Shown piece by piece: positions 2,115 through 44,150 of a stretch of 64,000 nucleotides of DNA. The position numbers and the translations under genes are program-made. The notes beneath the pieces are model-generated. The model was not told the origin of the DNA and did no database searches. It saw nothing but the letters and a program-made list of their open reading frames with translations. The number at the start of each line of letters is the position of its first letter. The first letter of the stretch is position 1. Source of the DNA: a virus (Duplodnaviria > Heunggongvirae > Uroviricota > Caudoviricetes); IMG/VR virus record IMGVR_UViG_2877982868_000014; one strand, 5' to 3'.

Positions 2115-4152
2115 ATTCTGTTACCGCTTTTTTCACTTCCACCACAATGCTGTCAATCAGCACCGGGTAAGTTGCATTTTTTGTGATATCCGTTACGCGG
2201 AGTTTGTCCACCGGGAAAGTTCCTACTGGTGACTGCGTCAGGGTAAACGCGGCACCATCCTGACCATCAATAACCGGAATAACCTGAAGGCTGTTATTTC
2301 CTGCAAAACGGAAGGCCAGCGTATGCCATTCATTATCAAATGCACCAAAGGTTCCCAGTTTCTGGTTATTTGTTGCCACTTTTGCATTGTGGTACATCAC
2401 ATTCAGGTCTTTTGCGTCTGTCTGGATGTAGAACGATGCCAGCAGATTATTCCCTGCATCCCCTGTCAGGGTGACACCCTGCGGCAGAGAGGAAACCGGC
2501 CAGTAAAGCGCCATGACATACTGGTTTGCCACCAGGTCGCCCGGTACTTTAAAACGACAACTGATTAAACCACCATTTTTCAGCAGTTCAGCACCAGTAC
2601 CGGCATCATGATCCAGATACCAGGATGATTTACCTGTTTCCTTGGTCAGTTTCATTGCCTTACCACCTGTGCCTCCTGCATCACTGATAATTTCAGCTTT
2701 ACCGCCAGCCGGCTCCCAGCCCTGGGCTTTCAGATTTCCTTCTGACTCACTGACACGGTAAGACAGCAGTGTTGTGGTTACTGCTTCAGTTTCTGAAGGT
2801 GACGGCACTGGTGCTTCAGTTTCAGAAGATGGAACATCGGCTTTTACTGTGGTTCGCCCCGCATGAGTCAGAACTGCCGTGGCCAGACGGTCGGAAATAA
2901 TCCCACGACGTGCCCATGAACTGAAATGGCTGGCCCGGTCCGTAGATGTCCAGGTGGCGGCACTGTTACGCCACGTTGAGCCGTAATAACCAATGGATTC
3001 AATATCCGGGTCTTCTGCCGGATTGTTGGTGGGTACATTCGCGCCATTTTCATCTGTCATTAATGGGACGAAATGAATGTTTTTATCTGTTTTATTTTTG
3101 TAGCCGTCATAGATTGCCTGGTATGCCTGTTCGTTTTTCTGTTTCCAGAAATACGTGGTATCACCACAAATCCACGGAACGCCAGCAGCACTGCCACCGG
3201 TACACTGTTCCGCCTGTTCAGCCAGGTCTGCGCGGAATTTTTCCACCATCGCCAGAAACAGCGCAGAATGCTCCGTCGGCTTCGCATCAATATCAAACTC
3301 GCCCTGCATCCACACCACAGCAAGCAGGCGGTTTTTCGGGTTCTTCGCCAGTGCCGCTTTTGTCCGGCTGATTAAGTCCTTATACAGCGGCTTATCCACA
3401 CCCCAGCGGGCTGAGTCCTCTGAAGCACCCGTGCTGTCACTGTACGTGCCGTCAGCACCCGCCGTGAATGCAGAACCACCACGGCAGCAGGGAACCAGCA
3501 GAATCCCCGCATCTGCCGGAATAAACGGCAGCAGTTTTTTGGCAATGTGAAGCCCCTGACCCACGGTGCCATATTGCCCTTTAGCCACATCCGCTTTCGG
3601 GTGATTTTTTCCACTCATATCCTGCACATCATGCAGACAGTGGTCGGCCAGAATGATGTCGTTATACTGACAGGCTTTACCTCCCGGCGTGACTGTACTG
3701 CGACGGGCTAACTGCATAATACGCGGTTCGGGGCGGTCATATGTCTCCGGCAGTGGCAGACCTTCACCGTAAGCCATACCGTTTGACTGACCAGCAAGAA
3801 CCACCACGTAATACCAGGAAGGGGAGCTGGAAGCAGTTTCATTTCCTGACGGACGGGTATGTGTTTCAGCATTATCCCAGTCTGACGGTTCAGCAGTACC
3901 GGCAACATCAGCACTTAACGGAATGACCGCACCAATACCCGCTCCGGTAATTTCCACACTCGGATCACCGGATACTGGCCTTACCCACAGGCAATCCCGT
4001 GTATTAAAACTGATGAGACAGTCAGCAAATGTCATTCCTCCTTTTGTTTCGGCCGGAGGAAAGGGAGCCTCAAGAAATGCCGCTGTACCACCGGAAACTT
4101 TAACAGTAAAGTTTCCGGGCATTGATGATAGTTGAACCCATTTGGACGTCAT
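2113..4152 (-). CDS. SASA/DUF303-family carbohydrate esterase (NanS-like sialate O-acetylesterase) with C-terminal lectin-like domain
   Basis: 679-aa ORF. Catalytic-type blocks VVVLAGQSNGMAYG and VVWMQGEFD are typical of the sialate O-acetylesterase family. The C-terminal ~190 aa resemble a LamG/concanavalin-type fold (inference). Mu has no gene between gin and com. Confidence 0.7.
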   Translation of the reverse strand: MTSKWVQLSSMPGNFTVKVSGGTAAFLEAPFPPAETKGGMTFADCLISFNTRDCLWVRPVSGDPSVEITGAGIGAVIPLSADVAGTAEPSDWDNAETHTRPSGNETASSSPSWYYVVVLAGQSNGMAYGEGLPLPETYDRPEPRIMQLARRSTVTPGGKACQYNDIILADHCLHDVQDMSGKNHPKADVAKGQYGTVGQGLHIAKKLLPFIPADAGILLVPCCRGGSAFTAGADGTYSDSTGASEDSARWGVDKPLYKDLISRTKAALAKNPKNRLLAVVWMQGEFDIDAKPTEHSALFLAMVEKFRADLAEQAEQCTGGSAAGVPWICGDTTYFWKQKNEQAYQAIYDGYKNKTDKNIHFVPLMTDENGANVPTNNPAEDPDIESIGYYGSTWRNSAATWTSTDRASHFSSWARRGIISDRLATAVLTHAGRTTVKADVPSSETEAPVPSPSETEAVTTTLLSYRVSESEGNLKAQGWEPAGGKAEIISDAGGTGGKAMKLTKETGKSSWYLDHDAGTGAELLKNGGLISCRFKVPGDLVANQYVMALYWPVSSLPQGVTLTGDAGNNLLASFYIQTDAKDLNVMYHNAKVATNNQKLGTFGAFDNEWHTLAFRFAGNNSLQVIPVIDGQDGAAFTLTQSPVGTFPVDKLRVTDITKNATYPVLIDSIVVEVKKAVTE

Positions 4153-4251
4153 AATAATCAGCCTGTTCCTGAATAAACTGAATTATCATATCCACAGACC
4201 GATAAACGCCATTTTGCGTTAATTCAGTAAAGGCCCAACAAAGAGAGCGTC

Positions 4252-4812
4252 TTATTTTTCCGAAACGCTCGCAGGATAATAACGATAAAGGGTTGAAAGA
4301 CCGATATCAAAAATAAGTGCCACCTGTCTTCGACTGACACCCCCGGCCAGTAAACGCCCGACCTGCTCGTATTGTTCCTGCGTGAGACGGCGGGGTCTGC
4401 CGCCGGTTCGTCCCCTTTCACGGGCAGCTGCAAGACCAGCCCGTGTCCGTTCGACAATTAATTCACGCTCCATTTCTGCCAGCGCACCCATTATGTGAAA
4501 AAAGAAGCGCCCCATGGGGGTTGACGTATCAATGTTGTCAGTAAAACTACGAAAATTTATCCCCTGTTGCTGTAATTCATCTGTCAGCGCAACAAGGTGG
4601 CGCATACTGCGCCCCAGCCTGTCCAGTTTCCAGACCATCAGCGTGTCACCGGGTTTTAGTTTCTTCAGTGCCCGCTTCAGTCCCGGCCGCTGTGTCGTTT
4701 TACCACTCATTTTGTCTTCAAAAATCTGCTCACATCCTGCACATTCCAGCGCATTTCTTTGTAAACCTGTGTTCTGGTCATTTGTTGATACGCGTATATA
4801 GCCAATCAGCAT
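4252..4812 (-). CDS. gin: Gin/Hin/Pin-family serine DNA invertase
   Basis: 186 aa. MLIGYIRVSTNDQNTGLQ... carries the catalytic Ser motif, with a C-terminal HTH. Adjacent to the gix site at 4867-4892. Confidence 0.93.
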   Translation of the reverse strand: MLIGYIRVSTNDQNTGLQRNALECAGCEQIFEDKMSGKTTQRPGLKRALKKLKPGDTLMVWKLDRLGRSMRHLVALTDELQQQGINFRSFTDNIDTSTPMGRFFFHIMGALAEMERELIVERTRAGLAAARERGRTGGRPRRLTQEQYEQVGRLLAGGVSRRQVALIFDIGLSTLYRYYPASVSEK

Positions 4813-27603: not shown

Positions 27604-28104
27604 TCAGACTTTCGGCAAATCGTAGCGACATAACCATTCATCCGCCGAACGGCGGGCCTCAAGGCCGGGGAGCTTCACCCCCTTTGAATAAATCCAGCGG
27701 ATATACTGCTTACAGGACGCGGGCATCTGCCCGGCATTGATCAGGCGCAGAAGCGTGGAGTTGCGAAAGTTCGTTTCACCGGCCCAGAAGATCCACGAAG
27801 CCAGCGCCACCGTCTGACCACGGGTAAGCGGCACCTGAACACGCCGATCAATGGCCGCAAAGGCCCATTTCATGTCCTTTTCCAGTAGTTCCAGGCATTC
27901 TTCATCCGTCAGGGTCATACCCGGTTTCACATCCGGGCCGGTATGGCCGTAACAGATGGTGGGTGTACCGGTGGGATCGATATACGTGGAGTTTTCTTTC
28001 CCTTCCCAGTAACCGGTGTAATGCGTGGCAATCGTGAACGTCCCGGCACCGGCCAGAACAAGGGCAATCAGCTTTTTACGCAGTGGTGCGGGGAGTTTTG
28101 GCAT
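27604..28104 (-). CDS. lys: SAR-type endolysin (T4 lysozyme family, Mu gp22-like)
   Basis: 166 aa. Gly/Ala-rich N-terminal signal-arrest-release-like segment LIALVLAGAGTFTIA. Catalytic E-8-D-5-T pattern in WEGKENSTYIDPTGTPT. Confidence 0.85.
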   Translation of the reverse strand: MPKLPAPLRKKLIALVLAGAGTFTIATHYTGYWEGKENSTYIDPTGTPTICYGHTGPDVKPGMTLTDEECLELLEKDMKWAFAAIDRRVQVPLTRGQTVALASWIFWAGETNFRNSTLLRLINAGQMPASCKQYIRWIYSKGVKLPGLEARRSADEWLCRYDLPKV

Positions 28105-28175: not shown

Positions 28176-28601
28176 TCAGAAAAGTGGCGGTTGTGTTCTT
28201 GCCAGATGCAGACGGCGCTGTTCACGTATGACGGTATAAATCTGGGTTTCTGACATCCGGTAATGGCGGCGAAGGGATTCAATTTTCTCGCCCCGGTCCC
28301 AGCGCGAAAATATCTCATTGTTTCGCAGCTCGGCAAAGAGAGATTCCCCGACCGGCAGGTAATAACCCCGTCCGCCCATATAGGCTGCCTGAGCCGCAGC
28401 CACCTTGCGTGCCAGTTTGCCGGCCAGTACCGGCTCAATCCCCTGACGCTGAAGTTCTGCGCCGGTGACTTCAACCAGTTCTGACAGGGTCCGCGGCCAG
28501 TTCTTTTTGAGAACATCATCAGGGATGTCATCAAGGCGGTCGATAAGGGCGTGCAGTTGCTCACTGTCACCACCAAACATGCTCATCTGAGTTTCTGCCA
28601 T
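28176..28601 (-). CDS. mor: Mor/C-family transcription activator
   Basis: 141 aa. C-terminal HTH region ...IESLRRHYRMSETQIYTVIREQ is typical of the Mor family. GGAGG SD. Confidence 0.8.
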   Translation of the reverse strand: MAETQMSMFGGDSEQLHALIDRLDDIPDDVLKKNWPRTLSELVEVTGAELQRQGIEPVLAGKLARKVAAAQAAYMGGRGYYLPVGESLFAELRNNEIFSRWDRGEKIESLRRHYRMSETQIYTVIREQRRLHLARTQPPLF

Positions 28602-28635: not shown

Positions 28636-28664
28636 AAAATAAAAATCCCGCGTTGTGGCGGGAT
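28636..28664 (-). terminator. intrinsic terminator between gemA and mor
   Basis: Minus strand: ATCCCGC-CACAAC-GCGGGAT followed by TTTTTATTTT. Confidence 0.65.
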
Positions 28665-28670
28665 TTGGGG

Positions 28671-29180
28671 TTAACGGGGAAGTGATTTTTCATACTGCCT
28701 GCAAACGGCGTCATACCCCATCAGCGTGCGTTCGGGCATTCCCATCGCGGCCAGCATTTTGCGGCGGTGCCATCGCTTGAGACGCTCCAGCACATCTGAG
28801 GCCAGGGCGGGGTGTTGCTCCAGCCACTGCCAGTTTGCCACACCTTCGCCGCCGTTTTGCGCGGCCGTCTGCGATTTCACCCAGCGGTTAAGGGCGGTTT
28901 CCGCACCATCAGAGATAAAGCCCTGCCGGTGCATCACCTTCCAGATGGCGCGAATTTTAGCGGTCACCGTACCCGGTTTTAAGGCCCGGTTAACCGGGTT
29001 CTGACGCACTTTAAAACCGCGTTTTTTGAAAACATCCAGCACGCGGGATAACTCATCCGGTGACATATCCCGGCAGCTGGTTTTGCCGGTGACCGCCAGT
29101 AGTACGGATGTGTAGGTTTCATCATCCAGGGCAAGCTCGCGTTTTGCCACATGAATGGCAGATATCAGTTTCCCTCTCAT
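28671..29180 (-). CDS. gemA: GemA-like regulatory protein (Mu gp16, DUF1018-type)
   Basis: 169 aa. Recognisable GemA-family sequence, positioned just before mor. Confidence 0.8.
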   Translation of the reverse strand: MRGKLISAIHVAKRELALDDETYTSVLLAVTGKTSCRDMSPDELSRVLDVFKKRGFKVRQNPVNRALKPGTVTAKIRAIWKVMHRQGFISDGAETALNRWVKSQTAAQNGGEGVANWQWLEQHPALASDVLERLKRWHRRKMLAAMGMPERTLMGYDAVCRQYEKSLPR

Positions 29181-29473
29181 GCTGTATCAACACTCCTGCG
29201 GATATGATAGGTATTATTTTCCCGATCGAGCTGAACCCGATACTCCGGAGGAATCACAAAAATATTAAAACCATCATCAGTTTTTATTCTTGAGTAGCAT
29301 TCCCCCTTATGATATCTGGCCAGTGCATTAATCAGAGAAGTCGCAGCCTGCCCAATCAGGTATTTTTTATGAAAAATACTGATAACTTTCCGGCACAGCC
29401 ATCGTGTAATGACGAATGCACCGAAAAAGGATGTGATATATAAATACCAGAACAACTGCGAACTACTGTCCAT
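29177..29473 (-). CDS. hypothetical membrane protein (one N-terminal TM segment)
   Basis: 98 aa, with the hydrophobic stretch LFWYLYITSFFGAFVITRWL. AT-rich gene whose ends overlap both neighbouring genes. Confidence 0.55.
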   Translation of the reverse strand: MDSSSQLFWYLYITSFFGAFVITRWLCRKVISIFHKKYLIGQAATSLINALARYHKGECYSRIKTDDGFNIFVIPPEYRVQLDRENNTYHIRRSVDTA

Positions 29474-29660
29474 TATCTTTCTCCTTATTCAGTCTTCTGC
29501 GGCATTCGGCACAGTCATCAGGGCTTTCAAATGTATCCGGCTCGCGATTATGAGCCAGATATAACCACCGTCCACATATACTGATATTTTCGCCTGTTTT
29601 AAAAAAATGATGCTTCCTGGCCATTAGTGGCCGCGCCCATCCAGCGGGTAGACTATTCAT
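29463..29660 (-). CDS. hypothetical small Cys-containing protein
   Basis: 65 aa. ICGRW...DDCAECRR is a possible zinc-binding motif. Confidence 0.45.
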   Translation of the reverse strand: MNSLPAGWARPLMARKHHFFKTGENISICGRWLYLAHNREPDTFESPDDCAECRRRLNKEKDNGQ

Positions 29661-29988
29661 TTGCTTTATCCTCCATGCTGGACAGAATCATATGTATTAA
29701 TGTCGGGCGTGGAGATATACGCATTTCATTAAGCGTCTGAAGGGCAGCAACAGCTGCCTGTTTATCGGTGCCTTTGGCAATTTCAGCAAGAGAATGCACA
29801 ATCCATAATGGGCTTAACGCTACGGCTGAATGCAGAATCATGTCATCCATAATAATTTCTGGCATATCCCGTTTGTCACATTCTTTATCCATAAAAGAAA
29901 CGATTTTTTCTGCATCTTCCGGTTTCATGCCTCCGGCGATGAGAATTTTACGATATTCATAAGACGATCTTAATTCAATACTCATCAT
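29653..29988 (-). CDS. hypothetical protein
   Basis: 111-aa ORF in the co-oriented early operon. No family recognised. Confidence 0.5.
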   Translation of the reverse strand: MMSIELRSSYEYRKILIAGGMKPEDAEKIVSFMDKECDKRDMPEIIMDDMILHSAVALSPLWIVHSLAEIAKGTDKQAAVAALQTLNEMRISPRPTLIHMILSSMEDKANE

Positions 29989-30000
29989 TCACCTGCCTGT

Positions 30001-30369
30001 TTAATCAGTTTCCAGTGCTTTGCTACGGGCAACAGCCTCACACTCAAAAAATACCGACTCCGGCACACGCTCCTTTAATTCACGAACAAGAAAATCATTA
30101 ACGAGTTCATGACGTCTTATATTTCTTTCCTTTTCCTCCTGGCGCAATACAGCAAGGCGGTATTCAACAGTCCGGCGTTGTTTCTGAAAGACAGCCAGTG
30201 CTTTTCTGGCAGAGTTACGCAATGTATCATCGCCACAGGGTTCGTATTCAAGCTGAAATTTAATCTCTTCAATGGTTTCTTTTATTTTTGCCAGCAAGCT
30301 AAGACAGTCGCTGATTGTCTTCAGTTTTTCATTATCAATATAACTTCTCACGCATTCACCTCCCGTCAT
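30001..30369 (-). CDS. hypothetical coiled-coil protein
   Basis: Start MTGGECV at 30369 forms an ATGA overlap with the upstream gene's stop codon. Confidence 0.5.
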   Translation of the reverse strand: MTGGECVRSYIDNEKLKTISDCLSLLAKIKETIEEIKFQLEYEPCGDDTLRNSARKALAVFQKQRRTVEYRLAVLRQEEKERNIRRHELVNDFLVRELKERVPESVFFECEAVARSKALETD

Positions 30370-30677
30370 TCCGGTAAAGCTGAAATATGGCACCAGTGCG
30401 TCACCTGTCCGTCCTCATCTTCAAGGCAGGCTCCGGTTTCTTCATCAATAAAAAAGCCTTCATACCCCATATGGCCGATGCGCAGTTCCTGTTGGTCACC
30501 ATACTGAACAATCAGCACGACAGCCTCCATATCAGGCGGGAAAGCATCATTCAGTGAATGCCAGGGATAACCGCGCAAATCCCCGAAATAAACACCGGTC
30601 AGCGTTCCGCCACAGACCGGCATTCCGACGGCACACACAAGGGGTTCATCTGATTCAACAAATAATGTCGTTATCAT
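30366..30677 (-). CDS. DUF551-like phage protein
   Basis: 103 aa. C-terminal ...QVTHWCHISALPE resembles the conserved THW-x-PLPEPP end of DUF551. Confidence 0.55.
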   Translation of the reverse strand: MITTLFVESDEPLVCAVGMPVCGGTLTGVYFGDLRGYPWHSLNDAFPPDMEAVVLIVQYGDQQELRIGHMGYEGFFIDEETGACLEDEDGQVTHWCHISALPE

Positions 30678-31225
30678 GGCATTAATTCCCGTAATACAAC
30701 ATCTTCGGCAGTCCGACGACGGTGATAAATAAAACTCACCGTGCCCTCGGATAATTCAAATTTCTCGCCGATTTCCCTAAAGGTAAGACGCCGTGGTGAT
30801 TCAGCATCCCGTAATTCACGAATAAGATGAACATCATCGTCAGGTATGCGGGTAAAAGGCAGTAATTCTCCGTATTTTTTCATGCTTACGCCAATATATC
30901 GCGCCCGATTGTGGACAGAATCCCGGTCTCGCCCCAGATATTCTCCTATTTGCTTACCGGTCATCGTCCTGGCATTTTTTCGGATAAATTTATCTTCATC
31001 AGGTTTAAATCTGAGGCGTTTGCATTTGAGCAACTCCGGGTAAGTACCGCGTAATAAAACAATCCGGTTATGTACACCCCAGAAACTTCTTTTTATCCTG
31101 ACAGCAATATCCTTAACCGGGGTGGATGGATAAAGCGCAATCAGCAGCGCATCTTCTTCAGGTGTCCATGCGCGAACATGAGCGGGTGCACGGCCTTTTC
31201 TCCCCATGGGTTGTAATTTCATCAT
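30674..31225 (-). CDS. putative DNA-binding protein with repeated Myb/SANT-like HTH units
   Basis: 183 aa. WTPEEDALLIALY, KPDEDKFIRKNARTMTGKQIGEYLGR and LTFREIGEKFELSEGTV look like three HTH repeats. Confidence 0.5.
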   Translation of the reverse strand: MMKLQPMGRKGRAPAHVRAWTPEEDALLIALYPSTPVKDIAVRIKRSFWGVHNRIVLLRGTYPELLKCKRLRFKPDEDKFIRKNARTMTGKQIGEYLGRDRDSVHNRARYIGVSMKKYGELLPFTRIPDDDVHLIRELRDAESPRRLTFREIGEKFELSEGTVSFIYHRRRTAEDVVLRELMP

Positions 31226-31228
31226 GCA

Positions 31229-31744
31229 TCACCCCCCGACTCGCTTTTCGGCAGCATAAAACTCATCAGACAGAATTTCGGTCATTTTCCGTTTTGCGGA
31301 ATCATCTTCGCACTGAAGGTAAATAACATCGTCAACGCAGAACCACTTCACGGGACCATGCAATATTGCTGAGAAGTCAATACCCAGCCAGAACAACAGT
31401 GCATCGGTTCTGGCATACGTGACGGGCGAATATTCACGCCACAGACTGTTAAGTTCGTCAGAGGCAACGCGCAGGGCTTTGGGAATACGTGATGTGCGCG
31501 GTGTGCAGCTCCAGCCATTCGACGCAGTCGGTTTTCGCCATAAGTCGCGATGAAAAGGATATTTGTCATCCATAAAGCGCAGCCCTTTAAAACAAAAGCC
31601 ACTGATACCGGATACAAATACCGACCGGCACGCAACATTCAGCACGGCCTCAAGGCGTTTTGCCTCATCCTTAACTTTCTGGCAGTCCTGCTGATATTTT
31701 TGCCACGCGGCCAGCGCGGAAGGGTTTGATGTTTTAAAGAACAT
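31229..31744 (-). CDS. hypothetical protein
   Basis: 171-aa ORF. Possible distant paralogue of 32281-32823 (shared KYQQ, WRK and F/LxWL patches). Confidence 0.5.
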   Translation of the reverse strand: MFFKTSNPSALAAWQKYQQDCQKVKDEAKRLEAVLNVACRSVFVSGISGFCFKGLRFMDDKYPFHRDLWRKPTASNGWSCTPRTSRIPKALRVASDELNSLWREYSPVTYARTDALLFWLGIDFSAILHGPVKWFCVDDVIYLQCEDDSAKRKMTEILSDEFYAAEKRVGG

Positions 31745-32277
31745 TACGCCACCTCCGCAGATATCCCGGCAGGTGCAGCCGTCCGGTCAACAATCAGGTA
31801 ACGCAGAACATGTTCGGTGATATTCCAGCCGCTTAAACCGCAGATAATGACACCCAGGCGAATGTCGATATACGCCATCACAAACTGGGGCACGCCTTCT
31901 TTCATGGCCTGCTCATCAACTTCAACCACCACATAAACGGTTTCGCAGGTCAGTACGCCCTGAGCAAATTCCCACGCCATCGACGGAATATCATGCCCCT
32001 CAATCCACGGCAGGGATTTTCTGAAGCTGCACCACTGAACATCATCAGCCGCACCTTCCTGGCTGCATTTGCGACGAACCGGCTGCACCGGGCGGGGACG
32101 CGGAATATCATAAAAACCGTTACATTCCGTCAGCACCCCGGCATCGACCGCATCACGCAAAAAATAAACCATCGAGGATGGCGGCATATTCATTTTTTCA
32201 GCCAGAATGCCGCAGGTCAGACGCCCGTAAATACTCAGCCAGTTTTTAACCCCTTCAAGCACTTTTGCATCAATCAT
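31744..32277 (-). CDS. hypothetical protein with N-terminal winged-helix-like region
   Basis: 177-aa ORF whose ends lie within a few bases of both neighbouring genes. Confidence 0.5.
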   Translation of the reverse strand: MIDAKVLEGVKNWLSIYGRLTCGILAEKMNMPPSSMVYFLRDAVDAGVLTECNGFYDIPRPRPVQPVRRKCSQEGAADDVQWCSFRKSLPWIEGHDIPSMAWEFAQGVLTCETVYVVVEVDEQAMKEGVPQFVMAYIDIRLGVIICGLSGWNITEHVLRYLIVDRTAAPAGISAEVA

Positions 32278-32280
32278 GAA

Positions 32281-32823
32281 TTATTCCTCCGTCAGCGCCA
32301 CATATTCAGAATGTTTAATTTCCTGGCATTCTTCAGGAATACACCCTTTTATTTCCCTGCCATAAGCGCCTACTTTAAACACCACGCACAGGGCATCACG
32401 GGAGAGCGACGGGGTCCACCAGGAGTCCGTGTTAAACATGGAGGGGATTCTCATTACCCCCAGCTTTTCACAGAGCCAGACAAGGAAATCAGGACGCTTT
32501 CTTAACTCGCGTTCAGCGGCTTCAATCATTGCGGCAATCGCCGGTCCTTCAGGGCATGACTCATCAGGTCTGGCAATAAAGCACGGTCCGTCCCCGATAA
32601 AAGCCACATCATCGCGCTTACGCCAGCCCGCAGGCAGAGCACCAGAAAAATAAAACTCACTGATTACGTCCATGGCAAACGGCTTTAAGCGCAATCCGGC
32701 AGCGCCTGTATTTTTCAGTAATGCCCGAAGAATACTGTTGCGTAGCGGTAAAACAGTCTGTTGATATTTGGTGAAATATTTATTTGTCTGCACACGGTCT
32801 AATTTGAAATAAAAATATGCCAT
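32281..32823 (-). CDS. hypothetical protein
   Basis: 180-aa ORF, the first gene downstream of gam. Confidence 0.5.
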   Translation of the reverse strand: MAYFYFKLDRVQTNKYFTKYQQTVLPLRNSILRALLKNTGAAGLRLKPFAMDVISEFYFSGALPAGWRKRDDVAFIGDGPCFIARPDESCPEGPAIAAMIEAAERELRKRPDFLVWLCEKLGVMRIPSMFNTDSWWTPSLSRDALCVVFKVGAYGREIKGCIPEECQEIKHSEYVALTEE

Positions 32824-32920: not shown

Positions 32921-33451
32921 TTATTTATTCAGTCCGGCGTCCTGTTCAAAAGGCTCGACATAAAAACTTTCAGCGCCTTTATTCACCTTAATACCGGCAA
33001 TGCCTTTCACTGCATCCGGCTCCGCTAGGACCGCTTCCTTGTTCACTTCCTCTTTCGTGCGGATGAATCGCTCAAGCCCCATACGGCGCAGCATTTCAAT
33101 CACACCTTCCACATCACGGCTGACGCTGCATGATGGATTTCCCAGCCGCCATGACACTGTTCCGGTGGTCAGATTGGCTGTTTTGGTTTTGCCGCCGTTC
33201 GTCAGCTCATCGCGGTTGGTTTTGCACCAGTCCTGAATCCCCTTAAAAAGCACTTTGATTTCTTTTTTAAGGTTTTCAATCTGCGGCGTATAACGGGCGG
33301 TGATTTCTGCCACTTCATCATTCATCGCCGTTTCCAGCCGTAGCGCCTCTCGCTGAATATCGCCCAGGGTACGGATATCGCGGCTGACTTCTTCGCGGGT
33401 CTGCGGTGCAGCCTCGGCTGCGGCCTTTAATTTTGTAACACGTTTAGCCAT
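32921..33451 (-). CDS. gam: host-nuclease inhibitor Gam (Mu Gam family)
   Basis: 176 aa. ...LGDIQREALRLETAMNDEVAEIT...WCKTNRDELTNGGKTKTANLTTGTVSWR...RFIRTKEEVNKEAV closely parallels Mu Gam. Confidence 0.9.
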   Translation of the reverse strand: MAKRVTKLKAAAEAAPQTREEVSRDIRTLGDIQREALRLETAMNDEVAEITARYTPQIENLKKEIKVLFKGIQDWCKTNRDELTNGGKTKTANLTTGTVSWRLGNPSCSVSRDVEGVIEMLRRMGLERFIRTKEEVNKEAVLAEPDAVKGIAGIKVNKGAESFYVEPFEQDAGLNK

Positions 33452-33462
33452 TTTGTTTTTCC

Positions 33463-33756
33463 TTATTGCAGTGTGCCTGATGCTTTATGCACGCGGTGGC
33501 GTTTAATGATGGCATCCGCCCCAAAAGCCTGTACAGATGCCTGAAATTCCGCTGAGAGAAACTGAATAATTTCAGGACTGTGATACTGGAGAATACTTGC
33601 ATAAACGCCACAGAGTGACGTCGGCCTGTTATTCGTATCACGTTCTGTTTTTACATCCACACCAATCTTTTCATGCACTTCAACACAGTCATTGCCTGCC
33701 GGTTTTTCGTCATGCGAAACATGCTTAAATTCAAAAATAACGCGTACTTTGCTCAT
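33463..33756 (-). CDS. hypothetical small protein, tandem paralogue 2
   Basis: Start MSKVRVIFEFKHVSH at 33756 with AGGGG upstream. Paralogous to 33761-34033. Confidence 0.55.
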   Translation of the reverse strand: MSKVRVIFEFKHVSHDEKPAGNDCVEVHEKIGVDVKTERDTNNRPTSLCGVYASILQYHSPEIIQFLSAEFQASVQAFGADAIIKRHRVHKASGTLQ

Positions 33757-33760
33757 GGAA

Positions 33761-34033
33761 TTACCCCTGCTGATTAAATTCATTACCTTTAATAACCCCG
33801 GAACGCATGCTCATATCTTTCATGAGCGCACTGGCTTTCATTGCCACAAGTTCAGCAAAGTCTCTGCTTTCCGCGAGCATAACCACCCCAAAAATCATGG
33901 CGGGTCCATCACCTTTCTGCTTTATCCCGGTTGAACGTATGTCCAGACTTACCCCCATGCGCACTGTTCCATCAGCGTTTTTATGGATAACGTGCTCCTT
34001 GTATTCGAAAATAATGCGTACGACTTTACTCAC
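33761..34033 (-). CDS. hypothetical small protein, tandem paralogue 1
   Basis: 90 aa. MSKVVRIIFEYKEHVIH... Confidence 0.55.
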   Translation of the reverse strand: MSKVVRIIFEYKEHVIHKNADGTVRMGVSLDIRSTGIKQKGDGPAMIFGVVMLAESRDFAELVAMKASALMKDMSMRSGVIKGNEFNQQG

Positions 34034-34312: not shown

Positions 34313-34567
34313 TCACACCTCCCAGTAAACCGTGCAGCCGCTGATGCGGGTGGCCTTCACACGGCGGCGCAGGCCGTTGGTCTGTATGGTGATTTCAATT
34401 TCACCGGTTCCCTGCACGTTGCCTACCGGCGGCGTGGTTTTCAGTGCAAAACGTTGCGGATAGCGCTTACTGCGTTCCAGTACCGCACCGGCAAGTTCGG
34501 TCAGACGGCGCGCGCTGTTCAGGGAGTCGAATAAATTCATTTTGTTACCGCAGGATTGCATATTCAT
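34313..34567 (-). CDS. hypothetical early protein
   Basis: The ATG at 34567 has a GAGGTG SD. The ORF-track start at 34579 abuts the upstream stop codon. Confidence 0.5.
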   Translation of the reverse strand: MNMQSCGNKMNLFDSLNSARRLTELAGAVLERSKRYPQRFALKTTPPVGNVQGTGEIEITIQTNGLRRRVKATRISGCTVYWEV

Positions 34568-34579
34568 ATAACACCTCAT

Positions 34580-34807
34580 TTAGCTGACTTGTTTCGCACC
34601 AACAGAACGGCATATTCCGCTGTAAACGTCTGTCGCACCTTCGCGATCAAGTCCGGCAGATATCACCATTCGTGTGCGGTCATTAAATTCAAAAAGAAAA
34701 TCGCCACATTCTTTATTTTCGGCCAGTGAAATCACCTTCACGTTATCGAAATTAACCAGGTAAAAGCGTCCGTAAATATCAGGAATATTAAATACCGCCA
34801 TAATCAC
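34580..34807 (-). CDS. hypothetical early protein
   Basis: 75 aa. The start overlaps the stop codon of B. Confidence 0.5.
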   Translation of the reverse strand: MIMAVFNIPDIYGRFYLVNFDNVKVISLAENKECGDFLFEFNDRTRMVISAGLDREGATDVYSGICRSVGAKQVS

Positions 34808-35736
34808 ACCTGTGAGAGTAATTCAGGGTTGGTATAAACCTCTTTAAAGGCCGCATTAATATGTTTTTCTGTCAGCGCCGCGCCTTCACCGCTGGCGGTG
34901 AGCCACGCCTGGTTAAGCGTATGTGTCAGAACGCGTAACGCTCCCGGCTTTTCAGCGATAGCCTGCATGACGGCCAGCTCGGCCTCACCACTGATCCCCC
35001 ACGCCCTGGCAATGGCCAGCACATCCGCCTTTTTGGCCTTGCGAAGTTGTTTTGTACGGGCAAGACGGCTGAACAGGCGCGATAAATCATCAAAGGCGCG
35101 GCGTCCACCTTTAAACAATCCGCGCGGGTTACCAATAAGCACCATCCCGATCCCCGTGGCGTCCTGAATTGCCCGGAGTTGCTCCAGACCGTCAATACCA
35201 AGATGATCCGCCTCATCCACAATCACCAGTCCACGCGTTCCCATCAGGCGACGGCGGATGGCGCGGGATAATGCCCCTTTGTTCGCGCGGGTGTAATCAA
35301 TCCCCAGCGCATCGGCCAGCTCCAGCAGACACTCCGTGACGCTGGAGTGCGCGGGTGACAGGGTGATCATCCAGGTGTTTGGTTGCTCCTGGCAGTAATT
35401 ACGGGCAGTGGCCGTTTTACCCACACCCGGTACGCCCACAATAACGTTAATACAGCCCATCAGACGAACCGCCTGAAACAGTGCGCGCAGCTCCTGGACT
35501 GTCTGCGTTTCCACAAACTGCGGCGGTTCCGGCAGTGCGCTTTGTTTATTCCAGTTCTCATACCAGGAACGCAGGGAAGCAGCCACAGCAGCGTTATCGC
35601 CTTTATATTTTCCCTTACGGAAAGCCGATAATGTGCCGTCGGAAATTCCCGCCTCTCTGGCGATGGCATACTGCGTCAGTACGCCGCCATCAATAAGTTC
35701 ATCAATGGTCTTGATTACATCGTTAATATCAGTCAT
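34804..35736 (-). CDS. B: MuB-like AAA+ ATPase, transposition target DNA activator
   Basis: 310 aa. N-terminal HTH, Walker A GVPGVGKT, Walker B LVIVDEADHL. Directly downstream of the transposase gene. Confidence 0.88.
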   Translation of the reverse strand: MTDINDVIKTIDELIDGGVLTQYAIAREAGISDGTLSAFRKGKYKGDNAAVAASLRSWYENWNKQSALPEPPQFVETQTVQELRALFQAVRLMGCINVIVGVPGVGKTATARNYCQEQPNTWMITLSPAHSSVTECLLELADALGIDYTRANKGALSRAIRRRLMGTRGLVIVDEADHLGIDGLEQLRAIQDATGIGMVLIGNPRGLFKGGRRAFDDLSRLFSRLARTKQLRKAKKADVLAIARAWGISGEAELAVMQAIAEKPGALRVLTHTLNQAWLTASGEGAALTEKHINAAFKEVYTNPELLSQV

Positions 35737-35807: not shown

Positions 35808-37898
35808 TCAGGCCAGCGGGTCATTTTCTTTTAATTTCGCTTCCAGCAACTGCAATCCCCGCTGGAAATTACGCTCGTATTCTTCATCAGGTTCATCGTC
35901 AGCGACCGGTTGCTGAACGGTCACCGTATTACCCACAGGGCGGTATATGTTTTCCAGCCAGGGCTCCTGCGGCTTGTGCTCCAGCACGTTGACAACCTCA
36001 TCCTCGGCATCACGGATTTTTTCCTCTGCGCGTTTACGCATGCCTTTAAGGCGTTGCTGCTGTTTGTAGTATTCCGCGCTAACCGGGAAGGCTTCGCGTT
36101 TATTACCGTCCCATACCGCCTCGCAAATCACGCTGCCATCCAGGCGACGTACGGTAATTCGTTCGGCATCATGAATGTCATAGCTGATAAGCACCTTACG
36201 ACCATGCTCGTCACGCAGCTCGGGCGCGTAGTAAATATTATTCAGCCAGCGTATTTCACAGCGTCTTACAGGGCGTTCCACCATCGGCCGGAACATATCC
36301 CGCAGCTCAACATCGGACAGCCATTCAATTTCCGTGTCCTCTTCCGCCAGGCGTTTTTTTCTGAACTCCGCCGGGCTGTAATGCTTGCCGTTCGGCTTCA
36401 CCGGTAATTCATCGTGCGGCCGGTTGTTGTACCACTCAACACCGTCACGAATGGCATCAATCAGTTCAGACCAGGACGGTAAATCACGCATCGCTGACTG
36501 CTGCCGGGCGTTCAGCCGTTTGCCCTGTTGCAGGGCAGTAAATGCCGAGCGTAAATCGCGGTTGGTTTTGCGTAACGTCTCGCGATCTGCACCTTTCCCG
36601 AAATAGGTGCGGTATTTACGGGCTATGCGCATCGGTAATGTGCGGTTAAGCCGTTCGATAATGCCTCGTCCCTGCGGATTACCGGCAATCCCGGTCGGGT
36701 GATTAATCCCCAGTCGCGGCAGTATCCCCACAACCTCCTTATCCAGGATGTCGGCGGTTTCCCCGGAGCCGTTATCCGAGTAATACAGAAACGGTTTGCC
36801 GTGATGGCGAATGCCGTGCTGTATGGCACCGGCTACGGCGAAAACATTTTCAGCCAGGTCAAGGCTCCAGCCCACCACAAAGCGCGTGCCACCGTCGATA
36901 ACAAAGGTCACTTCCGGTGCAAATGGCCGACCGTGAACCGGGTGTGCGCATTTCAGCTTCATGCCGTGACCGTCACCAATCCAGACATAATTCACCGGCA
37001 TTCTGGACCAGTCGCGGCGCGTGAATCCCTCAAGCTGGCGGTATTCACTGCCGGTCACCCGGCCTTTTTGTTTCACCACTTCCGGCAGTTTCTTCATTGC
37101 GCGGCGAATGGTGTCATAAGACGGCATGATATCGAGCATATAAGGCTCATCAGCGTGCCGGTGCTGCCATTCAGCGACAAAATCCTCGTAAGCCTCGGTC
37201 ATTGGTCGGCCGTTTGACTGGCGATACTGCGCCAGAAATTCGGGCAGCCAGTTAATATCTTCGGCTTTTATTTCCTGGCGCTTACCCGGTGCCAGTAAAA
37301 GCAGGCGTTCAGCGGCGTTCTGCGCCTTGTTAAAGGCCGCAATCCAGCGTTTCAGCGTTATTTCACTCAACGCACGGCTGTTTCCCTTTTTGGCGTTCGC
37401 CGTCTCAACCATTGCCACAATGCGCTCGTCCAGTTGCGAACGTGCCAGGTTGTCAACGATAAACCGGATAGCTTTCGCACAGCTGAAACCGGGTTGTTGC
37501 GCGACTTTCATCACTTCGCTGACGATCGCAATTCGTGCATCAGCCACCTGGCGCTGGTTTTCAGTCAGGGCATTAAGGCGTTCAACCATCAGTTGTGGTG
37601 ATCCGCGATATGCCTCCACCGCATCAACCACGGCAGGCGAGCGTCTGGCCTTTGTCACCACCGGAGCCGGTGATTCATCAGCTTTTTGCGTCATCAGTTG
37701 AAGGGCATAACGTTCACGCAATACTTGTTGCGCGCCAGAAGGCAAACAATCGATATTAAATTCGATTGCTTTTGTCCCCTTACGTTTGCGTAACATGGCT
37801 GCATTTCCCGCAGCTGCTTTTGTGAGTCGATGGCGAATGTTATGTTCCATCATTGGTAAATCAGGAAGACCAACACATTCTTTTGCTGTTACCCACAT
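35808..37898 (-). CDS. A: MuA-like DDE transposase
   Basis: 696 aa. DDE candidates in WIGDGHGM, YYSDNGSGE and GRGIIERLN. N-terminal DNA-binding domains and an acidic C-terminus. Confidence 0.9.
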   Translation of the reverse strand: MWVTAKECVGLPDLPMMEHNIRHRLTKAAAGNAAMLRKRKGTKAIEFNIDCLPSGAQQVLRERYALQLMTQKADESPAPVVTKARRSPAVVDAVEAYRGSPQLMVERLNALTENQRQVADARIAIVSEVMKVAQQPGFSCAKAIRFIVDNLARSQLDERIVAMVETANAKKGNSRALSEITLKRWIAAFNKAQNAAERLLLLAPGKRQEIKAEDINWLPEFLAQYRQSNGRPMTEAYEDFVAEWQHRHADEPYMLDIMPSYDTIRRAMKKLPEVVKQKGRVTGSEYRQLEGFTRRDWSRMPVNYVWIGDGHGMKLKCAHPVHGRPFAPEVTFVIDGGTRFVVGWSLDLAENVFAVAGAIQHGIRHHGKPFLYYSDNGSGETADILDKEVVGILPRLGINHPTGIAGNPQGRGIIERLNRTLPMRIARKYRTYFGKGADRETLRKTNRDLRSAFTALQQGKRLNARQQSAMRDLPSWSELIDAIRDGVEWYNNRPHDELPVKPNGKHYSPAEFRKKRLAEEDTEIEWLSDVELRDMFRPMVERPVRRCEIRWLNNIYYAPELRDEHGRKVLISYDIHDAERITVRRLDGSVICEAVWDGNKREAFPVSAEYYKQQQRLKGMRKRAEEKIRDAEDEVVNVLEHKPQEPWLENIYRPVGNTVTVQQPVADDEPDEEYERNFQRGLQLLEAKLKENDPLA

Positions 37899-43130: not shown

Positions 43131-43827
43131 TGCTCTCAGCCATCGCGTTGTCATACGAGTCGCCTGTACTCCCTGTTGATGCCAGTAATCCGGCTTCTTT
43201 TAGTCGCTCCGTATAGGCTAGTGACACATACTGAGAGCCTTTATCGCTGTGATGGATGGTGCCAGACGGACGACGGGCCCACAACGCCTGCTCCAGCGCA
43301 TCCAGCACGAATGTCGTTTCCATAGACGATGAGACCCGCCACCCCACGATGTATCCGGCAAACACATCAATGATAAACGCCACATAGACGAAGCCCTGCC
43401 ATGTGCTGACGTAAGTAAAATCAGCCACCCACAGCTGGTCAGGTCGTTCTGCCACGAACTGACGGTTTACGCGGTCGCCTGCGGCAACGGCTTTCCGGCT
43501 GATGGTCGTACGGACCTTTTTACCCCGGAGAACACCGGCAAGTCCCATAACCGCCATGAGACGTGCCACTGTACATCTGGCCACCCTGATTCCTTCCCGT
43601 AACAACTGACGCCAGACTTTACGCACACCGTACACCTGATGATTTTCATCGTATACGCGCTGTATCTCTCTCTTCAGCCAGTCGTCGTGCTGCGCACGGG
43701 CACTGCGTTTATCCGGATGATGTCGCTGTTGCTGACAATGGTAATACGTTGACGGGGCAATATGCAGTTCGCTGCATACCGGTCCGACCCCGTACTGCTC
43801 ACGCAGCTTATCCAGCAGTGGCATCAT
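42937..43827 (-). CDS. IS629 OrfB (DDE catalytic subunit)
   Basis: 296 aa. Overlaps orfA at the A6 run (43827-43832), the usual IS3-family -1 frameshift window. Confidence 0.9.
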
Positions 43828-44150
43828 TTTTTCCAGAGGCGGTCGAACTCCGCCTTCGCAAAATAAGCGGAAGCCTGGCGAAGGATATCGTTACTGCGGC
43901 GCAGTTCACGATTTTCACGTTCCAGCTCTTTCAGACGCTGACGTTCAGCGCTGGTGAGCCCACCATCACCGCCCCCGGTATCCCGCTCATGCTGGCGAAC
44001 CCAGACACGCAGAGTCTCCGGCGTACAGCCAATCTTTGGGGCAATGGAACAAATTGCCGCCCACTGTGAGTCATATTCATCCTGACTTTCCAGAACCATA
44101 CGAATCGCCCGCTGACGGACTTCGGGGGAAAAACGAGTATTTTTAGTCAT
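43824..44150 (-). CDS. IS629 OrfA (HTH transposase subunit)
   Basis: 108 aa. [30 protein letters not shown]... is recognisably IS629/IS1203 OrfA. Confidence 0.9.

Follow-up and report, generated by a model that had tools for sequence, protein, structure and literature searches.

The variable early segment between gam and gemA in an Sp18-type Mu-like prophage of Escherichia coli joins a linked gene module to small-protein cassettes

Nine co-oriented, tightly packed genes occupy positions 29177–32823, on the minus strand, of the window (the whole 64,000-nt stretch analyzed, from IMG/VR record IMGVR_UViG_2877982868_000014). They form a mosaic of a linked module (o1–o4) and small-protein cassettes (o5–o9) between gam and gemA and, judged by sequence, the block belongs to an Sp18-type Mu-like prophage of E. 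coli, forming the variable, non-core part of its early operon. Its sequence is not new: annotated E. coli prophages match it at 98.8% identity, strain M7638 has the same arrangement, and the block corresponds to the semi-essential early region of a Mu-type phage, which is ordinary and has been catalogued before. The finding is an annotation of a known kind of region and not a new system. On balance, we favor reading the block as the distal half of a Mu-type semi-essential early operon, in which a putative DNA-acting module stands beside cassettes whose products may bind host proteins.

Position and organization of the block

The early genes follow the order A (35808–37898), B (34804–35736), gam (32921–33451), block, and gemA (28671–29180), all on the minus strand, which places the block distal to A and B within the early operon, at the position of the Mu-type semi-essential early region. 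Two of its genes, o2 and o3, have orthologues in that region of Mu (gp11 and gp12). The upstream anchor, gam, encodes a Mu Gam-like end-protection protein (57% identity to Mu Gam; phrog_491, E = 3.5e-70), and the downstream anchor, gemA, matches the Pfam GemA model at 106.6 bits and is 43% identical to Mu GemA.

Junctions within the block vary between overlaps of up to 11 nt and gaps of up to 14 nt, the o9 stop and the gemA start overlap by 4 nt, and a GGAG/AGGA-type Shine-Dalgarno site lies upstream of all nine start codons. A sequence pattern search found no excess of internal promoters or terminators within the block. Directly after gemA, pattern matching identified a terminator-like hairpin (28643–28666, minus strand; a 9-bp stem and then a run of T), which probably marks the 3′ terminus of the early transcript. 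The nine genes would be transcribed with A, B, and gam from the early promoter, and would be translationally coupled, with transcription probably stopping at this hairpin. The initial annotation had described ten co-oriented, packed ORFs; co-orientation and packing hold, but there are nine genes, not ten, because this is what both the ORF list and the RefSeq annotation of the 98.8%-identical E. coli prophage give. Its remark that 29.2–30.4 kb is AT-rich is borne out, the GC content being 0.422 at 29177–30393 and 0.468 over the full block, but 0.555 in the late region.

A linked module shared with Mu-group phages

The module comprises, in this order, a DUF5420-like gene (o1), gp11 (o2), gp12 (o3), and a three-repeat HTH gene (o4), an arrangement retained among Mu-group phages of Escherichia and Salmonella. 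The module is predicted to pair two DNA-binding proteins, o2 and o4, with two remotely related copies of a single alpha/beta fold, o1 and o3.

The 177-aa product of o2 (31744–32277, minus strand) is a homologue of Mu gp11 (67% identity, E = 3e-81) that has a Gp11_C domain preceded by a putative winged HTH at the N-terminus. The Gp11_C domain matches Pfam PF25754 at 136.6 bits (E = 3.5e-40; threshold 27 bits), residues 90–167 covering the full-length model (1–78). For the N-terminus, the best PDB profile matches are the wHTH domains of CodY and Lrp/AsnC; these matches, at E = 0.8–1.8, are weakly consistent with the winged-helix-like protein proposed initially.

The product of o4 (30674–31225, minus strand; 183 aa, pI 10.1) carries three tandem repeats, putatively HTHs of Myb/SANT or sigma-r4 type, in agreement with its first description as a triple Myb/SANT HTH protein. 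It matches phrog_323, ‘transcriptional regulator, D5-like’ (E = 2e-58), and is related to Mu gp9 (32% identity, E = 2.5e-8), its three internal repeats aligning with the two of gp9. Its Pfam HTH scores fall just below the cut-offs (Sigma70_r4, 23.5 vs 24.1 bits; Myb, 16.6 vs 24.4 bits).

Between gam and the gp11 homologue lies a variable slot, filled here by o1 (32281–32823, minus strand; 180 aa). This protein scores 12.2 bits against Pfam DUF5420 (PF17457; E = 0.17) and its close relatives 15–15.6 bits. Since o1 lies below the gathering threshold of 26 bits, we treat it as a divergent relative and not as a formal member. A profile of the o1 family recovers PF17457-bearing proteins at E = 3.5e-61 to 1e-32, and strain RM9245 as well as IMG/VR loci carry a canonical DUF5420 gene in the same genomic slot. 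The o1 protein is colinear with canonical DUF5420 members over its whole length and shares their N-terminal YFK and C-terminal IKHSE(Y/F)(V/I)A motifs, but is only 23–24% identical to them. A DUF5420-like gene immediately precedes the gp11 homologue in each of the 46 IMG/VR loci that are long enough to show it, even where another gene replaces gam. One IMG/VR locus carries two DUF5420 copies.

The 171-aa o3 protein (31229–31744, minus strand) is a full-length homologue of Mu gp12 (53% identity over 168 aa, E = 4e-63 by BLASTP); precomputed PF26885 assignments are carried by 46 of its 46 homologues. It is also a probable remote relative of o1 and DUF5420. The suggestion that these two proteins of ∼175 aa might be paralogous found no support from BLASTP or narrow profiles, but gained it from a broad DUF5420 profile (in hhalign, 158 colinear columns at E = 1.6e-4 and a probability of 50%), a parallel order of secondary-structure elements, and overlapping Foldseek target lists, the AF2 model of o3 being of moderate confidence (pLDDT 63). 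The two proteins thus appear to share one alpha/beta fold, as remote copies without a solved analogue. None of the ORFs had been assignable in the initial annotation; this stands for function but not for family, given that o2 and o3 correspond to Mu gp11 and gp12 and o4 resembles gp9.

Small-protein cassettes

The cassettes are predicted to encode an acidic protein (o5), small unclassified proteins, a zinc-binding protein (o8), and a membrane-anchored protein (o9). The o5 product (30366–30677, minus strand; 103 aa; phrog_6925, E = 2e-52) is very acidic, with a pI of 4.05 and 18 acidic vs 2 basic residues. It had been called DUF551-like; o5 itself has no DUF551 match at E up to 10 (threshold 22 bits), and the likeness survives, weakly, through a 96%-identical orthologue with a sub-threshold score of 14.6 bits (E = 0.062). 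For o6 (30001–30351, minus strand; phrog_6158, E = 4e-56), we follow the RefSeq start, a GTG with a strong RBS, which yields 116 aa; the ORF list gives an alternative reading of 130 aa from 30393. Its PDB sequence matches are all weak and sub-threshold, to helical or coiled-coil proteins, the best of them being with designed coiled-coil and TPR proteins. The 111-aa o7 protein (29653–29988, minus strand; phrog_1988, E = 6e-45) is confined to Mu-like phages: tblastn detected it nowhere but in SfMu and Yersinia Mu-like phages, where a 34%-identical counterpart lies in the same region.

The small Cys-motif protein noted earlier is o8 (29463–29660, minus strand; 65 aa; phrog_2358, E = 4e-34), whose H-C-C-C motif (H18, C29, C50, and C53) is indeed invariant among distant homologues, suggesting that it is probably zinc-binding. 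Its relatives occur in 185 phage records, 153 of them from Pseudomonas phages (Pbunavirus/PB1-like in the records examined), and also in Sf11 and Wifcevirus. In the two records examined for gene context, BrSP1 and Sf11, the homologue sits among early small genes.

The last gene, o9 (29177–29473, minus strand; 98 aa; phrog_17269, E = 1e-68), combines an N-terminal hydrophobic segment with a deeply diverged C-terminal domain. The segment is conserved and aromatic-hydrophobic (Kyte-Doolittle maximum 1.34) and is probably a membrane segment, which makes the single-TM protein proposed initially plausible. The gene exists in two alleles: that of Sakai shares 50% identity over its length, residues 1–29 being almost invariant, and nucleotide identity drops to 0.52–0.54 between flanks that are 97–100% identical. 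Between the alleles, dN/dS is 0.04 in the N-terminal and 0.13 in the C-terminal part. Among the cassettes considered below as effector candidates, o5 is marked by its acidity, o8 by being shared with early arrays of lytic Pseudomonas PB1-like phages, and o9 by its probable membrane anchor and two alleles.

Distribution and mosaicism

The block was found in 232 of 5426 complete E. coli genomes (about 4%), mostly STEC, and at a coverage of at least 80% in 136 of the 5426, the Sakai Sp18 relative included. Among near-identical E. coli prophages, o1, o5 together with o6, o6–o9, and the o9 allele are swapped at gene boundaries. Natural prophage variants lacking o1, o5, o6, o8, or o9 exist, an indirect sign that these genes may be dispensable for the element. 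Across 23 other species, the gam–gemA interval measures about 0.05–2.9 kb, compared with 3.7 kb here, and has just gp11 in common with the block; this is the sole block gene encountered in other genera, in Kluyvera and Pantoea loci. Most block families are confined to Mu-like elements. Synteny with Mu, boundary swaps, and the range of interval lengths agree with the view in the initial annotation that this is the equivalent of the highly variable semi-essential early region of Mu.

About 4% of complete E. coli genomes therefore harbor the prophage that carries the block, with all nine genes annotated just as hypothetical or DNA-binding proteins. The separation of a conserved module from swappable cassettes, with mapped breakpoints and natural knock-outs, offers a basis for assigning the early accessory functions of Mu and, equally, for testing counter-defence.

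Possible functions

Classical Mu genetics mapped accessory functions (arm and cim) to this early part without assigning them to genes; gp11 and gp12 may be linked to arm and cim. Under the reading we favor, the module would most likely act on DNA or transcription, boosting or tuning phage replication and immunity, and the cassettes would most likely bind host proteins, in host takeover, exclusion, or counter-defence. Tentatively, at least one gene (candidates o5, o8, and o9) may encode a new counter-defence or host-takeover effector, and/or the strictly linked DUF5420-gp11-gp12 module may act on DNA as a new system of three parts, built on a fold lacking a solved relative.

That the block serves in anti-defence or host takeover is a plausible hypothesis. 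That the whole block is an anti-defence island, with most genes inhibiting restriction, Gabija, retrons, or CBASS and an arms race behind its variability, we regard as rather unlikely. Such an island would fit the AT-rich segment, the hypervariable cassettes swapped at gene boundaries, the strong acidity of o5, which recalls DNA-mimic anti-restriction proteins, and the occurrence of o8 in early small-gene arrays of unrelated lytic phages. A further point in its favor comes from a Pseudomonas Mu-like phage, where the products of the neighboring genes gam and gemA interact with RecBCD and with Gabija (PMC12407980). Against it, the libraries searched gave no similarity to known defence or anti-defence proteins; the search of defence HMM sets proposed initially returned, for PADLOC defence-system models, only chance-level matches (E = 0.02 or worse), placing no block gene in these systems. 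In addition, dN/dS points to purifying, not diversifying, selection, and most families are limited to Mu-like elements. The module genes o2, o3, and o4 show conservation with Mu, and their DNA-binding or regulatory appearance is unlike that of swappable cargo; the conserved module, HTH protein included, looks more like a set of phage-intrinsic DNA-binding accessories.

If all genes were of that intrinsic kind, the block would serve only replication, transposition, or regulation (arm/cim-like), with no part in host conflict and with variability reflecting neutral mosaicism. Two predicted DNA-binding proteins, conservation of the module with Mu, and the location in the operon of transposase A, B, and gam are in line with this, but we consider it improbable as an account of the whole block, as o5–o9 (small, acidic, zinc-binding, or membrane-anchored by prediction) are unlike replication factors, o8 is present in non-transposable lytic phages, and o1, o5, o6, o8, and o9 are missing from natural variants.

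It is very improbable that some ORFs are not genes at all, but reading frames arisen by chance or remnants decaying within an AT-rich spacer: although only o2 among the nine has an above-threshold Pfam match and o9 has a pN/pS of 0.65 (computed from very few differences), all nine match PHROG families (E = 4e-34 to 9e-106), each has an RBS, pN/pS is below 1 throughout (0.07–0.65, indicating purifying selection; gam 0.15, gemA 0.23), dN/dS between the o9 alleles is 0.16 with synonymous sites saturated, and gene boundaries are kept in dozens of loci.

Comparison with known systems

Mu-like phages, for example those of Pseudomonas (Cazares et al. 2014, as cited in bioRxiv 10.1101/2024.10.15.618418), have regions of genomic plasticity and accessory-gene hotspots, in which accessory cassettes amounting to a few per cent of the genome are exchanged at fixed sites between conserved anchors, as in our block. 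The block differs in its gene families, and no anti-CRISPR or characterized accessory function was identified in it.

Prophage Sp18 of E. coli O157:H7 Sakai and its STEC relatives belong to the same prophage family, mostly 98–99% identical in this region, with the block genes annotated as hypothetical proteins. Sakai Sp18 itself differs in having a 61-aa ORF in place of o5 and o6 and the other deep o9 allele.

In phage Mu, the semi-essential early region from gam to gemA (gp11–gp15) differs from the block in several respects. The interval is 1.9 kb in Mu and twice as long here (3.7 kb); in the block, a DUF5420-like gene is added upstream of gp11, o5–o9 take the place of gp13, gp14, and gp15, and there is no antisense gene; and the HTH protein of the block has three repeats and is encoded downstream of gp12, whereas gp9 has two and is encoded upstream of gam. 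The two regions nevertheless share position, strand, operon, and anchors, a gp9-type HTH-repeat protein, and the order gam-gp11-gp12-…-gemA, with identities of 57, 67, 53, and 43%, respectively.

Gene content and organization of the gam–gemA interval

The evidence splits the block between gam and gemA of this Sp18-type Mu-like Escherichia coli prophage (29177-32823 (-)) into two parts: a module of linked genes, conserved among Mu-group phages, and a set of swappable small-protein cassettes. In transcription order, transposase A (35808-37898 (-)) comes first and B (34804-35736 (-)) second, followed by five small ORFs (-) and by gam (32921-33451 (-)), which directly precedes the block; gemA (28671-29180 (-)) directly follows it. 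The initial annotation had counted ten ORFs in this interval. The ORF list has nine, as does an E. coli prophage of 98.8% identity in its RefSeq annotation; they are named here o1 (next to gam) to o9 (next to gemA). In the stretch of small ORFs that separates B from gam (34313-34579 (-) and 33463-34033 (-)), u4 weakly resembles Mu Kil (E 3.6e-4, 33% over 39 aa), and the adjoining u1 and u2 show weak mutual similarity (33% over 55 aa, E 0.03).

The block is as tightly packed as first described, with neighbouring genes overlapping by at most 11 nt and separated by at most 14 nt. A GGAG/AGGA-type site precedes all nine starts, all nine proteins match PHROG families (E 4e-34 to 9e-106), and pN/pS, calculated against the most divergent ungapped alleles from related loci, is 0.07-0.65 across the block genes, comparable to gam (0.15) and gemA (0.23). 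The AT-richness noted earlier was also confirmed, with a GC content of 0.422 at 29177-30393 and 0.468 over the whole block versus 0.555 in the late region. Within the block, promoter-like and terminator-like matches were not above their frequency in shuffled sequences, and a repeat scan returned none beyond chance. Just 3' of gemA, a hairpin with a 9-bp stem and a T-run (28643-28666 (-)) is terminator-like by pattern matching. From this sequence organization, we infer that the block genes and their neighbours would form a single, translationally coupled early transcript. Outside the prophage, in the host flank ∼4.5 kb past its repressor end, lies an ALIL pseudoknot (43753-43869 (-); 121.5 bits against Rfam RF01497), which is the frameshift element of an insertion sequence of the IS3 family.

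Family assignments

With 67% identity and a Pfam Gp11_C score of 136.6 bits, o2 (31744-32277 (-), 177 aa) is orthologous to Mu gp11, and its N-terminal 50 residues show a weak wHTH likeness (best PDB profile matches CodY and Lrp/AsnC, E 0.8-1.8). Similarly, o3 (31229-31744 (-), 171 aa) is the Mu gp12 orthologue, at 53% identity, with PF26885 present in its homologues. Three tandem HTH repeats in o4 (30674-31225 (-), 183 aa) are alignable with the two repeats of Mu gp9; this protein matches phrog_323 (E 2e-58), and its Pfam HTH scores fall slightly under the cut-offs. Direct comparison of o1 (32281-32823 (-), 180 aa) with Pfam DUF5420 (PF17457) yields an E-value of 0.17, and an o1-family profile recovers PF17457-bearing proteins with E-values down to 3.5e-61.

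Among the smaller proteins, o5 (30366-30677 (-), 103 aa) is strongly acidic (pI 4.05); the DUF551 likeness proposed for it is present but sub-threshold. A relationship between Gp11_C and o5/DUF551 received no support (hhalign P 0.21). The o6 gene (30001-30351 (-), 116 aa) begins at a GTG codon preceded by a strong RBS, and o7 (29653-29988 (-), 111 aa) has no relatives outside SfMu and the Mu-like phages of Yersinia, where they occupy the same region. The small Cys-motif protein reported previously is o8 (29463-29660 (-), 65 aa), in which H18, C29, C50, and C53 are indeed invariant. Its relatives are found in 185 phage records, 153 of them from Pseudomonas phages (those examined being Pbunavirus/PB1-like) and others including Wifcevirus and Sf11. 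In both records examined (BrSP1 and Sf11), the homologues sit among early small genes.

None of the nine proteins had a significant match in PADLOC or NCBIfam, and no hit reached E 0.04 in a PDB sequence search with single sequences of o1-o7 and family profiles of o8 and gp11. Literature searches on Mu gp11/gp12, DUF5420, ECs4953-4959, and arm/cim turned up no data on function.

Cassette variation among E. coli prophages

Of 5426 complete E. coli genomes, 232 carry the block, and 136 of these cover ≥ 80% of its length; the carriers are mainly STEC, with relatives of Sakai Sp18 among them. Between near-identical E. coli prophages, block differences coincide with gene boundaries. Sakai encodes a 61-aa ORF in place of o5 and o6, OkiPb01678 has two additional small ORFs at the o4-o5 junction, RM9245 carries a canonical DUF5420 gene in the exact o1 slot, and strain 600029 lacks o1 and has genes resembling Mu gp13/gp14, together with an antisense gene, in place of o6-o9.

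The last gene, o9 (98 aa), exists as two ancient alleles, represented by 29177-29473 (-) in the window and by 1302-1598 in the compared locus L003, with 50% amino-acid identity. Their nucleotide identity is 0.52-0.54 within flanks that are 97-100% identical, and the pair has a dN/dS of 0.16 with saturated synonymous sites. The hydrophobic N-terminal 29 residues are nearly invariant, whereas the C-terminal part is deeply diverged.

The DUF5420 fold family and its linkage to gp11

The possible paralogy of o1 and o3 raised by the initial annotation divides the methods. BLASTP and narrow-profile hhalign were negative, but secondary structure, Foldseek, and broad-profile hhalign are in favour. The AF2 model of o1 is confident (pLDDT 90.3, pTM 0.82) and that of o3 moderate (pLDDT 63); the order of secondary-structure elements is identical in both, and their Foldseek lists against BFVD share seven targets. 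Searching the full library with the o1/DUF5420 HMM profile recovered 119 cluster representatives. Only the 123-sequence profile built from that search gave a positive o1-o3 hhalign result, at a marginal 50% probability (E 1.6e-4), with 158 colinear columns aligned to the gp12 family. In this alignment, the N-terminal (Y/F)FK and C-terminal EI(K/L)(H/S)(S/D)EF motifs coincide. A remote DUF5420-superfamily member (200 aa), whose sequence ends in EIKKSEFIAISEE followed by a tail, is encoded at 3968-4570 of the non-Mu phage contig L079, flanked by terminase large subunit and portal genes; the fold family therefore extends beyond transposable phages. L079 was the one non-Mu locus retrieved by the P0100 scan, and the P0113 scan retrieved nothing.

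A DUF5420-profile search of IMG/VR returned 47 loci, 46 of which extend far enough for a neighbour check. A gp11 homologue lies directly downstream of the DUF5420-like gene in all 46, and gam lies upstream in 41. No gam homologue was detected upstream in L061, L063-L065, and L067; in L061 and L064, the two inspected, an unrelated 212-aa gene occupies the gam position, and L061 carries two DUF5420 genes in tandem. DUF5420 and gp11 occur without gp12 in several Mu-proper-like phages, whereas Mu itself has gp12 and lacks DUF5420.

A Gam-profile scan of one genome per species identified 23 loci in other taxa, where gam and gemA are ∼0.05-2.9 kb apart, versus 3.7 kb in the window. The only block gene shared with any of these loci is gp11, in those of Kluyvera, Pantoea, and an Enterobacteriaceae bacterium. 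A 168-aa ORF upstream of gp11 in Kluyvera-type loci was rejected as a DUF5420 relative on testing, and a MazG-like assignment was dropped, as Pfam gave no support. In a Mu-like prophage of Rodentibacter sp. (L008, 9738-10295), the gam-gemA interval contains a YfbR-like 5'-deoxynucleotidase (HD domain, Pfam E 3e-8), showing that nucleotide-metabolism cargo can fill the same slot.

Functional interpretation and comparison with Mu

The initial observation of the block was largely correct: the evidence supports describing it as a variable early accessory region of Mu type, but its proposed anti-defence cargo received no direct support. The linked module probably contains two DNA-binding proteins, alongside two copies of an unexplored fold, and we think that it serves phage-intrinsic DNA or regulatory functions. 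The small-protein cassettes are better candidates than the module for host-interaction or counter-defence roles. A host-conflict reading remains plausible because, in a Mu-like phage of Pseudomonas, the flanking genes gam and gemA have been linked to RecBCD and to the licensing of Gabija (PMC12407980). The region is already catalogued, in a common prophage and with each block gene in a PHROG; useful for follow-up are the linkage among DUF5420, gp11, and gp12 and the natural variants of the cassettes that were mapped.

The regulatory genes beyond the block also differ from those of Mu, in which mor and gemA overlap and C is encoded separately. The window holds a single Mor/C-family activator (28176-28601 (-)), directly upstream of lysozyme (27604-28104 (-)). 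It is nearer to Mu C than to Mu Mor (38.7% identity, E 5e-28, and 25.8% identity, E 2e-10, respectively), and the strong terminator-like hairpin at 28643-28666 (-) separates it from gemA, suggesting that the regulatory cascade may be simpler than that of Mu.
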